IMG/VR virus record: IMGVR_UViG_2703718801_000022
Source: a virus
Taxonomy: Duplodnaviria; Heunggongvirae; Uroviricota; Caudoviricetes
Length of the DNA stretch: 42,217 bases
Reading direction: 5' to 3' (one strand)
Each line of letters begins with the position of its first letter. Within the stretch, counting starts at the first letter, position 1. The translations under genes and the position numbers were made by a program. Of this stretch, positions 6,753-7,101 are shown piece after piece. Under the pieces are notes generated by a model that saw only the letters and a list, made by a program, of their open reading frames with translations, did no database searches and was not told the origin of the DNA.

Positions 6753-6767
6753 TTACCCTATGGGTGA
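6753..6767. promoter_or_regulatory. Operator-like palindrome TTACC-CTATG-GGTGA
   Basis: Member of dispersed palindrome family; lies about 24 bp after CCATATATGG (6715-6724). Confidence 0.4.
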
Positions 6768-6804
6768 TTTGCAAAACGTGCTGGATAGCAAACAAATTAT
6801 TTGA

Positions 6805-6824
6805 TACTGTATATTTGTACAGTT
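6805..6824. promoter_or_regulatory. LexA (SOS) box
   Basis: TACTGTATATTTGTACAGTT = CTGT-N8-ACAG with AT-rich centre, about 20 bp upstream of ATG 6844. Confidence 0.7.
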
Positions 6825-6843
6825 ATTGCATGGAGAAGATAAG

Positions 6844-7101
6844 ATGCAGCAGTATCACTATCCACTGGAAGACGGATTTACCGAAAGGATTCACACGCCG
6901 GGAGGCGTCAGGTCACTGGTGGAGGGATCGCACTTAATGAAATTACTCCGGGATCTCGATAAGGATGGATTTAATGTCGATGGCCCACTTGCCGAACTGA
7001 CTGCACTGATTAACTACGTCACCAGCTCACAGATGTCTATGCGGGATCTGCAAACACATCTCGACTATTGTGCCGAACAATTACGAAAACAAACCAGATA
7101 A
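6844..7101 (+). CDS. Small antirepressor-domain protein (standalone copy of the Ant C-terminal domain), predicted SOS-regulated
   Basis: 85 aa; GGAGAA RBS; homologous to C-termini of the 7417-8127 and 9301-10239 products (LAELT..Y...S...RD.QTH motif). Confidence 0.6.
   Translation: MQQYHYPLEDGFTERIHTPGGVRSLVEGSHLMKLLRDLDKDGFNVDGPLAELTALINYVTSSQMSMRDLQTHLDYCAEQLRKQTR

Follow-up and report, generated by a model that had tools for sequence, protein, structure and literature searches.

We analysed a stretch of phage DNA of 42,217 nucleotides (nt; IMG/VR record IMGVR_UViG_2703718801_000022), which is called the window below and to whose positions all coordinates refer. On sequence grounds, the window belongs to an epsilon15-like temperate podophage of the genus Uetakevirus, and its nearest relatives are TL-2011b, HEMP4 and phiV10. 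The subject of this study is a small gene, ant, which encodes a protein of 85 amino acids (aa), lies divergent from the tailspike gene and is preceded by a LexA (SOS) box. A preliminary description of this DNA, made from its letters alone, had proposed that ant is a LexA-controlled antirepressor gene whose domain recurs at the C-termini of two larger antirepressors. Our results indicated that ant is, by sequence, the orthologue of the antirepressor gene of phage SPC32H and that the window holds three copies of the Ant domain, each behind a different kind of control region. The features are collected in Table 1.

The small ant gene, the repressor and the LexA box

The product of ant matched chain E ("Anti-repressor protein") of PDB entry 5D50 over residues 2-84, corresponding to residues 3-85 of the chain, with an expectation value (E) of 1.4e-46 in phmmer. 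Its proposed identity as an antirepressor was thus borne out, the protein being 87% identical to the crystallised Ant of SPC32H. A tblastn comparison with the SPC32H ant product gave 86.7% identity (85 versus 86 aa), and the records of SPC32H and SPC32N carry the gene names ant and rep. In the Pfam and PHROG searches, the matches of the 85-aa protein were limited to PHROG 450 (E 7e-48), PHROG 15539 and PHROG 1760; the Ant domain is not represented in Pfam (a DUF724 match reached 17 bits, well under the cut-off of 38, and was noise), and NCBIfam has no model for Ant, for either large antirepressor or for the arc-like open reading frame (ORF) described below. The ratio of nonsynonymous to synonymous substitution rates (dN/dS) between ant and its SPC32H counterpart was 0.06, which places the gene under strong purifying selection. 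A Shine-Dalgarno-type GGAG precedes the gene at 6832-6835. The segment 6600-7400 showed 90-97% identity to the Escherichia phages HEMP4, phiv142-3, ZX5, phiV10 and TL-2011b and approximately 76% identity to the Salmonella and Enterobacter relatives, and synteny is kept, with tailspike and ant diverging. These comparisons identify the gene as the orthologue of SPC32H ant in an E. coli phage.

The presumed target of Ant is Rep, a repressor of 194 aa with two helix-turn-helix regions. It matched chain A ("Repressor") of 5D50 over its full length (residues 1-190, E 4e-42), and its C-terminal half matched 5D4Z. The Pfam search of Rep found HTH_3 and did not find Peptidase_S24, which upholds the view that this repressor lacks a LexA-like autocleavage domain and places it with the SPC32H type of Rep. 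Identity to SPC32H Rep falls from approximately 52% over the N-terminal third to approximately 39% over the C-terminal half, and the Rep alleles of this phage group diverge by up to 58%. Two proteins that interact tightly would not be expected to differ so much in identity to their SPC32H counterparts (87% for Ant, 42% for Rep), and we offer no explanation for this mismatch.

The palindrome TTACC-N5-GGTAA occurs in the window at 15 sites with at most one mismatch, against 0.65 expected. The sites start at 2950, 3195, 6753, 7133, 8200, 26729, 29871, 29889, 33601, 33663, 35609, 35946, 35994, 36706 and 36768; they are often paired, 18-62 nt apart, and cluster near rep, which the sites at 35946, 35994, 36706 and 36768 flank. 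The half-sites of the copy between tailspike and ant were unchanged in 10 phages, the equivalent site in the epsilon15 record is annotated as a "repressor" protein_bind feature, and the palindrome half-sites are kept even where the Rep of a phage is only 42-45% identical. These sites probably form the operator set of Rep.

The E. coli LexA consensus is TACTGTATATATATACAGTA. The near-consensus SOS box reported upstream of ant stood up well: besides matching the consensus at 17 of 20 positions, it was the sole site with all eight core positions of CTGT/ACAG and at least 13 of 20 positions overall in a scan of the whole window, and an alignment of the tailspike-ant intergenic region placed it in the same register in 10 phages of E. 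coli, Salmonella, Enterobacter and Klebsiella, with variable flanking positions. The distance from the box to the ATG of ant is 20 nt, and the spacer is A+T-rich. In the tailspike-ant region, SPC32N differs from SPC32H by a single base, a C-to-A change in the ACAG half of the box that corresponds to window position 6820. One change in the LexA site of SPC32H reportedly makes Ant constitutive and the phage lytic, and the difference between SPC32N and SPC32H fits this account of a lytic variant. In the Klebsiella relatives, the left half-site reads ATGT in place of CTGT and one additional base stands before the site, suggesting a possible weakening of, or change in, SOS control in this lineage.

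The bare pattern CTGT-N8-ACAG occurs three times in the window, against 0.52 expected. Two sites, at 22716 and 27258, were considered as extra SOS boxes and rejected for their G+C-rich spacers and poor overall match to the consensus. The latter (27258-27273, CTGTAAACCAGTACAG) lies within overlapping ORFs rather than 5' of a gene and is probably a chance match.

The preliminary description also had the box overlapping the ant promoter. The position of the box and the precedent of SPC32H favour such an overlap, and the lack of a strong sigma-70 consensus there speaks against it. A relaxed, conservation-guided scan yielded the candidate pair TGGATA-17-TACTGT, which is weak (7/12) and is the only hexamer pair common to all eight non-Klebsiella relatives; its putative -10 element forms the left end of the LexA box. 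An alternative pair found in some lineages only, TAGCAA-18-TATATT, scored 8/12. With either candidate pair, the box would span the -10/start region of a promoter that is inferred and unmapped. Under a different explanation, the LexA-like palindrome would be a chance or vestigial one, and ant would be constitutive or controlled by Rep through the palindrome at 6753-6767. The box follows that palindrome at a distance of 38 nt, and both the weakness of the promoter consensus and the altered Klebsiella half-site are in keeping with this explanation. However, a 17/20 match with both half-sites intact that is the only one of its kind in 42 kb, a register that is kept though the flanks vary, and the placement of the single SPC32H/SPC32N difference within the ACAG half make it very improbable that the box has no role in LexA control of ant.

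Table 1. Features of the window that bear on ant, the two larger antirepressor genes and rep
Feature	Position	Strand	Basis or remark
Tailspike gene	4444-6648	-	Divergent from small ant
Rep-operator-like palindrome TTACCCTATGGGTGA, one mismatch	6753-6767		Tailspike/ant intergenic region
Candidate ant promoter: -35 TGGATA (6782-6787), 17 nt, -10 TACTGT (6805-6810)	6782-6810	+	Relaxed, conservation-guided scan
LexA (SOS) box TACTGTATATTTGTACAGTT	6805-6824		17/20 to consensus; CTGT and ACAG both intact
ant, stand-alone antirepressor, 85 aa (type A Ant domain)	6844-7101	+	5D50_E and PHROG 450 matches
Perfect Rep-operator palindrome TTACCTTTGCGGTAA	7133-7147		Ends 1 nt before the -35 element of the isrK promoter
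Promoter-like TTTACA-17-CATAGT	7149-7177	+	Predicted start is the first base of isrK
isrK-type small RNA with terminator	7184-7260	+	Rfam RF01394, 67.2 bits (gathering 50)
C4-type antisense RNA	7285-7368	+	Rfam RF01695, 66 bits (gathering 45)
a2/b2-like C4 targets TTGGCGT (7371-7377) and CTAAGTGG (7398-7405)	7371-7407	+	Exact complementarity to C4 loops
Bro-N antirepressor, 236 aa	7417-8127	+	Bro-N, residues 17-112 (PF02498, E 1e-19); type B, residues ~153-236 (7873-8124)
Inverted repeat, left arm, 292 nt	7859-8150		92% complementary to 9278-9569; type B coding sequence plus 23 nt past the stop
Inverted repeat, right arm	9278-9569		92% complementary to 7859-8150
Chimeric antirepressor, 312 aa	9301-10239	-	P22_AR_N, residues 12-121 (PF10547, E 4e-44); type B, residues ~230-312
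sar-like antisense RNA over ant ribosome-binding site and arc-ant junction	10241-10308	+	RF00262, 40.1 bits (under gathering 43), E 9e-6
arc-like ribbon-helix-helix repressor gene, 55 aa from ATG at 10479 (listed ORF to 10500)	10312-10479	-	PHROG 228, E 2e-5
Promoter-like TTGACA-17-GACAAT, 10/12, into arc-ant	10515-10543	-	Promoter scan
Divergent Mnt-like gene, 153 aa, N-terminal Arc domain	10570-11031	+	PF03869, E 1.4e-14; PHROG 1388 and Arc-like PHROGs
rep, 194-aa repressor with two helix-turn-helix regions, presumed Ant target	36064-36648	+	5D50_A and HTH_3 matches

A second subtype of the Ant domain in two larger antirepressors

The domain of the small Ant protein returns at the ends of a 236-aa protein with an N-terminal Bro-N domain and a 312-aa protein with an N-terminal P22_AR_N domain. 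In BLASTP, the small protein aligned with the C-terminus of the former at 43% identity over 74 aa (E 3e-16) and with that of the latter at 46% over 72 aa (E 5e-17). The sequence of 5D50_E matched residues 155-231 of the Bro-N protein (E 2.3e-13) and residues 231-307 of the 312-aa protein (E 6.4e-14), and PHROG 450 matched them with E values of 6e-36 and 2e-35, respectively. An Ant-domain profile run against the six-frame translation of the window found exactly three copies (E 5e-45, 6e-44 and 1.5e-43). In addition, an AlphaFold2 model of the domain encoded by 7873-8124 was all-helical, with a mean confidence score (pLDDT) of 80.7, and its sole PDB matches were the Ant chains G and H of 5D50, with a probability of 1.00, template modelling (TM) scores of 0.60-0.73 and weak Foldseek E values of 0.015-0.03. 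The BLASTP, 5D50_E, PHROG 450, profile and fold comparisons therefore agree with the earlier alignment by eye in giving both large antirepressors the same C-terminal domain. By sequence and model, these two C-termini are a diverged subtype with the same fold, which we call type B, as distinct from type A of the small protein. Types A and B have 16 invariant positions in common.

The two type B copies are approximately 99% identical to each other over their last 80 aa, and the DNA that encodes them forms a long inverted repeat. They differ by 11 synonymous and 4 nonsynonymous changes in 80 codons (dS 0.22, dN 0.022); the resulting dN/dS of 0.10 shows that selection has maintained both since their divergence. 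The repeat could be a substrate for inversion or a product of gene conversion. The 1127 nt between its arms hold a perfect Rep-type palindrome (8200-8214) and three ORFs, namely a 59-aa ORF (8275-8454), a YafO-toxin-like ORF (8402-8974) and an ORF assigned by PHROG to "membrane associated protein" (8962-9228).

The 312-aa gene has a composite origin. The segment 9636-10305, which comprises the N-terminal ~200 codons and the leader, showed 89-92% DNA identity to the ant gene of CUS-3 and of many Shiga toxin (Stx) phages, and these matches end before the C-terminal domain; a Pfam search of the 312-aa protein gave no P22_AR_C match. Judged from these alignments, the gene is a chimera whose recombination junction immediately precedes the Ant domain. 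Of 5426 complete E. coli genomes, 33 contained the gene at a coverage of at least 80%.

The Ant-domain family is small: an exhaustive profile search of 1.84 billion proteins returned 65 representatives. Word-indexed protein searches with either type gave short proteins only and missed the fusions, which the exhaustive search revealed. Wherever the domain is part of a larger protein, it forms the C-terminus and stands behind AntA, Bro-N, Phage_pRha, ORF6N or, in the window, P22_AR_N; stand-alone type B proteins of 95 aa also exist. Bro-N, KilA-N, Rha, AntA and ORF6N are said to have been described as domain-shuffled phage regulators by Iyer, Koonin and Aravind in 2002. The proteins studied here resemble such regulators in joining generic N-terminal modules to variable C-termini, the Ant domain standing behind five modules, and differ from them in that one variable C-terminal domain corresponds to a repressor-binding protein of known structure. 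Within a collection of phage records, each of the 35 that have the domain also has a gene for a full-length Rep homologue; of the 36 records with Rep, 35 have the domain. The number of copies varies: the Salmonella relatives have the small gene alone, most E. coli relatives also have the Bro-N version, and TL-2011b and HEMP4 have three.

Control regions of the two larger genes

The leader of the Bro-N gene combines a perfect Rep-operator palindrome, a promoter-like site and two small RNAs in one apparent transcription unit. The isrK-type RNA carries a1/b1-like boxes, TTGGCGT (7209-7215) and CTAAGTGG (7225-7232), and overlaps a c4-a1b1 match (RF03163, 7171-7223) of 44.3 bits, just under the gathering threshold of 46.7. 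The C4-type RNA exposes the loops CCACTTAG (7326-7333) and ACGCCAA (7340-7346), which are complementary to the boxes of both isrK and the Bro-N leader; TTGGCGT and CTAAGTGG each occur once in isrK and once in the leader, where the latter box overlaps the Shine-Dalgarno GGAG of the Bro-N gene (7404-7407). Whole-RNA duplex energies of C4 with isrK or with the leader were no better than those of shuffled sequences, and C4 targeting was assigned from the exact complementary boxes, not from duplex energies.

In the immI region of P1, the c4 antisense design is joined to a promoter under phage-repressor control. The Bro-N locus resembles P1/P7 immI (c4-icd-ant) and the isrK-orf45-anrP locus of Gifsy-1, whose antirepressor AnrP induces the prophage (PMC4825925), in that one transcript carries IsrK/a1b1 and C4 before an antirepressor gene and a target matching the C4 loops covers the ribosome-binding site downstream. 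Unlike both, it has no icd or orf45 frame in between; the Shine-Dalgarno sequence that the b2 box covers is that of the antirepressor gene. A further difference is that the C-terminal effector domain of the antirepressor is the epsilon15-type Ant domain. TL-2011b matched 6600-11200 at 94.9% identity across 94% of the region length; between its small ant and Bro-N genes it has an insertion of approximately 1.1 kb (2024-3112 of locus L001; annotated "similar to hypothetical protein") that is absent from the window.

The 312-aa gene lies in a different setting, beside an arc-like gene. The arc-like ORF had no Pfam match; it showed 33% identity over 40 aa to P22 Arc (E 3e-5), and its TL-2011b homologue is annotated "Arc-like repressor". 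The candidate sar-like RNA on the opposite strand has a promoter-like site at 10205-10233 (+ strand) and a terminator-like site at 10284-10303. The immI region of P22 consists of mnt, arc, sar and ant and serves expression on infection and anti-immunity, not SOS induction. The window cassette is like it in having an arc-like gene, an ant gene with P22_AR_N and, divergent from these, a Mnt-like gene that encodes an Arc domain; a candidate sar-like RNA lies over the start of ant. It is unlike it in that the sar match falls below the Rfam gathering threshold, the arc-like ORF lacks a Pfam match, the Mnt-like protein has 153 aa and the epsilon15-type Ant domain takes the place of the C-terminal part of Ant. 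At the level of sequence, then, the three control regimes first described for this locus were all found: LexA for the small gene, a Rep operator with isrK and C4 for the Bro-N gene, and Arc/Mnt with a candidate sar-like RNA for the 312-aa gene.

A proposed SOS switch and the possible role of the additional Ant domains

According to a review that cites Kim & Ryu 2013, Ant of these Salmonella phages is made after self-cleavage of LexA and inhibits the repressor by protein-protein contact (PMC7380047). A second paper states that SPC32H Rep binds DNA as a tetramer, which an Ant tetramer breaks up by binding two dimers of Rep (PMC9638917). The window shares with SPC32H an orthologous Ant, its position beside the tailspike gene, a LexA box in register, the same type of operator palindrome and a homologous Rep with two helix-turn-helix regions and no S24 cleavage domain. 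It differs from SPC32H, which has a single Ant-domain gene, in that its phage and TL-2011b have three such genes, two of them of a diverged subtype fused to larger proteins, and in that its Rep is only 42% identical to that of SPC32H. The SPC32H switch is said to be the subject of Kim & Ryu 2013 (J Virol 87:11775) and Kim et al. 2016 (PNAS 113:E2480), with PDB entries 5D50 and 5D4Z.

The same logic, in which a LexA-repressed small antirepressor encoded outside the immunity region inactivates a non-cleavable repressor, has been described for Tum of phage 186, GfoA, GfhA and GftA of the Gifsy phages and AntC of N15, and an antirepressor under phage-repressor control is known in FsoA (PMC3121763). 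Tum, GfoA and AntC would thus be functional analogues of the window protein; the Pfam and PHROG searches gave no family link of the 85-aa protein to them, no direct sequence comparison having been made. SPC32H Ant is reportedly distinct in structure from the Tum/GfoA-type antirepressors. Gifsy antirepressor complexes are of the A2B2 form, and the SPC32H complex is a hetero-octamer. The preliminary description had argued for induction through a LexA-regulated antirepressor by analogy with the Gifsy phages and 186 Tum; the sequence supports the proposal, while the analogy missed the published Ant/Rep system of SPC32H.

We propose that ant is the SOS trigger of this phage and acts as in SPC32H, and we put the probability of this at roughly 0.8. 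In a lysogen, host LexA bound to the box, over the -10/start region, would hold ant off. DNA damage would lead to self-cleavage of LexA and to synthesis of Ant, which would bind the non-cleavable Rep and remove it from the TTACC-N5-GGTAA operators, so that the lytic genes would be turned on; as in SPC32H, the Ant tetramer would split the Rep tetramer into dimers. Both LexA control and the inactivation of Rep by Ant are carried over here from the SPC32H literature.

For the larger genes, the proposed timing follows by analogy from their control regions. The Bro-N/type B gene would be governed by the Rep-operator promoter and by the IsrK/C4 gate over its Shine-Dalgarno sequence, and these two controls together suggest that its product would appear only once Rep is failing, or in a newly infected cell. 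Such timing would suit a lock-in of induction or anti-immunity. The P22_AR_N/type B chimera, placed in a P22 immI-like mnt/arc/sar/ant cassette, would be made in a transient burst on infection.

Several observations weigh against the proposed switch or against parts of it. First, the strict sigma-70 scan of the box region gave no promoter over the LexA box. Second, Rep is 41.8% identical to SPC32H Rep, whereas Ant is 87% identical to its counterpart; that the two window proteins bind each other is an extrapolation. Third, type B is only 43-46% identical to type A. Fourth, the co-occurrence of the domain with Rep is not phylogenetically independent, nearly all of the records being epsilon15-like; the three independent lineages among them are too few to show whether type B co-varies with Rep more than type A does. 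Fifth, the Bro-N gene of phiV10 has its C-terminal domain in two pieces, and PAS61 and YDC107_2, which carry the same Rep, have no type B domain; together, these cases indicate that the large versions are dispensable. The phiV10 locus (L002, 3315-3994) consists of a Bro-N gene of 195 codons followed by a 30-codon ORF, and its type B domain appears to have been disrupted by a frameshift.

The closest functional evidence on type B comes from phage ZX5, whose Rep is 100% identical to that of the window and whose genome contains the small ant gene. Its ORF4, an "anti-repressor", shares 84% identity with the Bro-N protein of the window, and the C-terminal 150 aa of the two are the same. Overexpression of ORF4 reduced lysogens from 1e9 to 1e6 (~1000-fold) and repressor messenger RNA by 75%, in a paper that makes no reference to SPC32H, to LexA or to the small ant gene (PMC9782041). 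The idea that one repressor-binding domain is used three times holds as regards homology; the C-termini of the large proteins are, however, a distinct paralogous subtype, whose binding to Rep is inferred. That type B also inactivates this Rep is nevertheless what we regard as rather probable, in view of the homology, the tie of the domain to Rep genomes, the autonomous 95-aa form, the purifying selection and the ZX5 result.

Two other roles of type B were weighed. Type B might be a mere oligomerisation module, with the Bro-N and P22_AR_N domains recognising the targets, for example the repressors of co-resident lambdoid prophages. SPC32H Ant is itself described as a tetramer (PMC9638917), so oligomerisation is among the functions of the domain; the DNA for the N-terminal ~200 aa of the 312-aa protein shows 89-92% identity to that of the CUS-3 and Stx phage antirepressors, and these phages have different repressors; and antirepressor cross-talk between unrelated prophages is documented (PMC3121763). 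Against this stand the restriction of the domain, in the phage collection, to genomes with an SPC32H-type Rep, its joining to at least five N-terminal modules (Bro-N, P22_AR_N, AntA, Rha and ORF6N), the stand-alone 95-aa form, which suits an effector acting on its own more than an accessory part, and the lowered lysogeny of ZX5, a phage with an identical Rep, under ORF4 overexpression. We therefore consider a purely oligomerising role quite unlikely.

It is also conceivable, if unlikely, that type B targets other Rep alleles, giving anti-immunity against heteroimmune epsilon15-like prophages on superinfection rather than acting on the phage's own Rep. Both large genes lie in cassettes that serve infection or anti-immunity in P1 and P22, and the phiV10 copy is annotated "putative anti-immunity protein"; the ~45% identity between types A and B would sit beside Rep alleles that differ by up to 58%. 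P22 ant mutants, moreover, remain SOS-inducible (PMC7380047). ZX5 ORF4, however, acted on ZX5 itself, whose Rep is that of the window, and the Rep operator beside the isrK promoter would tie the Bro-N gene to the phage's own Rep. Inactivation of the resident Rep by type B thus remains the role that we prefer.

The LexA-Ant-Rep switch is already known from SPC32H through genetics and structure, and the isrK/C4 and arc/mnt/sar cassettes are of known kinds. What appears to be new is that the C-termini of Bro-N and P22_AR_N antirepressors are the SPC32H Ant domain and that one phage has three copies under three inputs; no prior description was found in the texts consulted, which did not include Kim & Ryu 2013. 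The Ant domain, with a known partner and a solved complex structure, can now be recognised as a C-terminal effector behind "antirepressor" annotations (Bro-N, P22_AR_N, AntA, Rha and ORF6N) that say little by themselves, which suggests that the C-terminal module sets repressor specificity in these widespread shuffled proteins. Its identity would also explain the ORF4 overexpression result, which the authors of the ZX5 study did not link to Ant or to the small LexA-controlled gene (PMC9782041). One phage with one repressor and three differently wired copies offers a testable case for why temperate phages keep several antirepressors. As a tentative extension, which we would sooner doubt than accept in full, the ~80-aa Ant fold may be a portable, self-sufficient Rep-inactivating effector that can be joined to any generic antirepressor N-terminus and any sensor cassette, and through which SOS, loss of Rep with an RNA timer, and the infection phase converge on one repressor; positive feedback through the Rep-repressed Bro-N copy would make induction irreversible, and satellites may exploit their helpers by the same means.

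A free-standing type B gene of 95 aa was found in ENA and Logan contigs (L012-L014, 10001-10288), at the edge of an element that encodes a DUF927/Toprim primase, Phage_ASH, AlpA and Bro-N proteins and has isrK and C4 RNAs of its own; no LexA box was found at its type B locus. In gene content, the element looks like a P4-like satellite, and its type B protein may derepress an epsilon15-like helper prophage, as epsilon of P4 does with P2. Elsewhere in the window, a transfer RNA gene was detected at 27066-27139 (63.8 bits).

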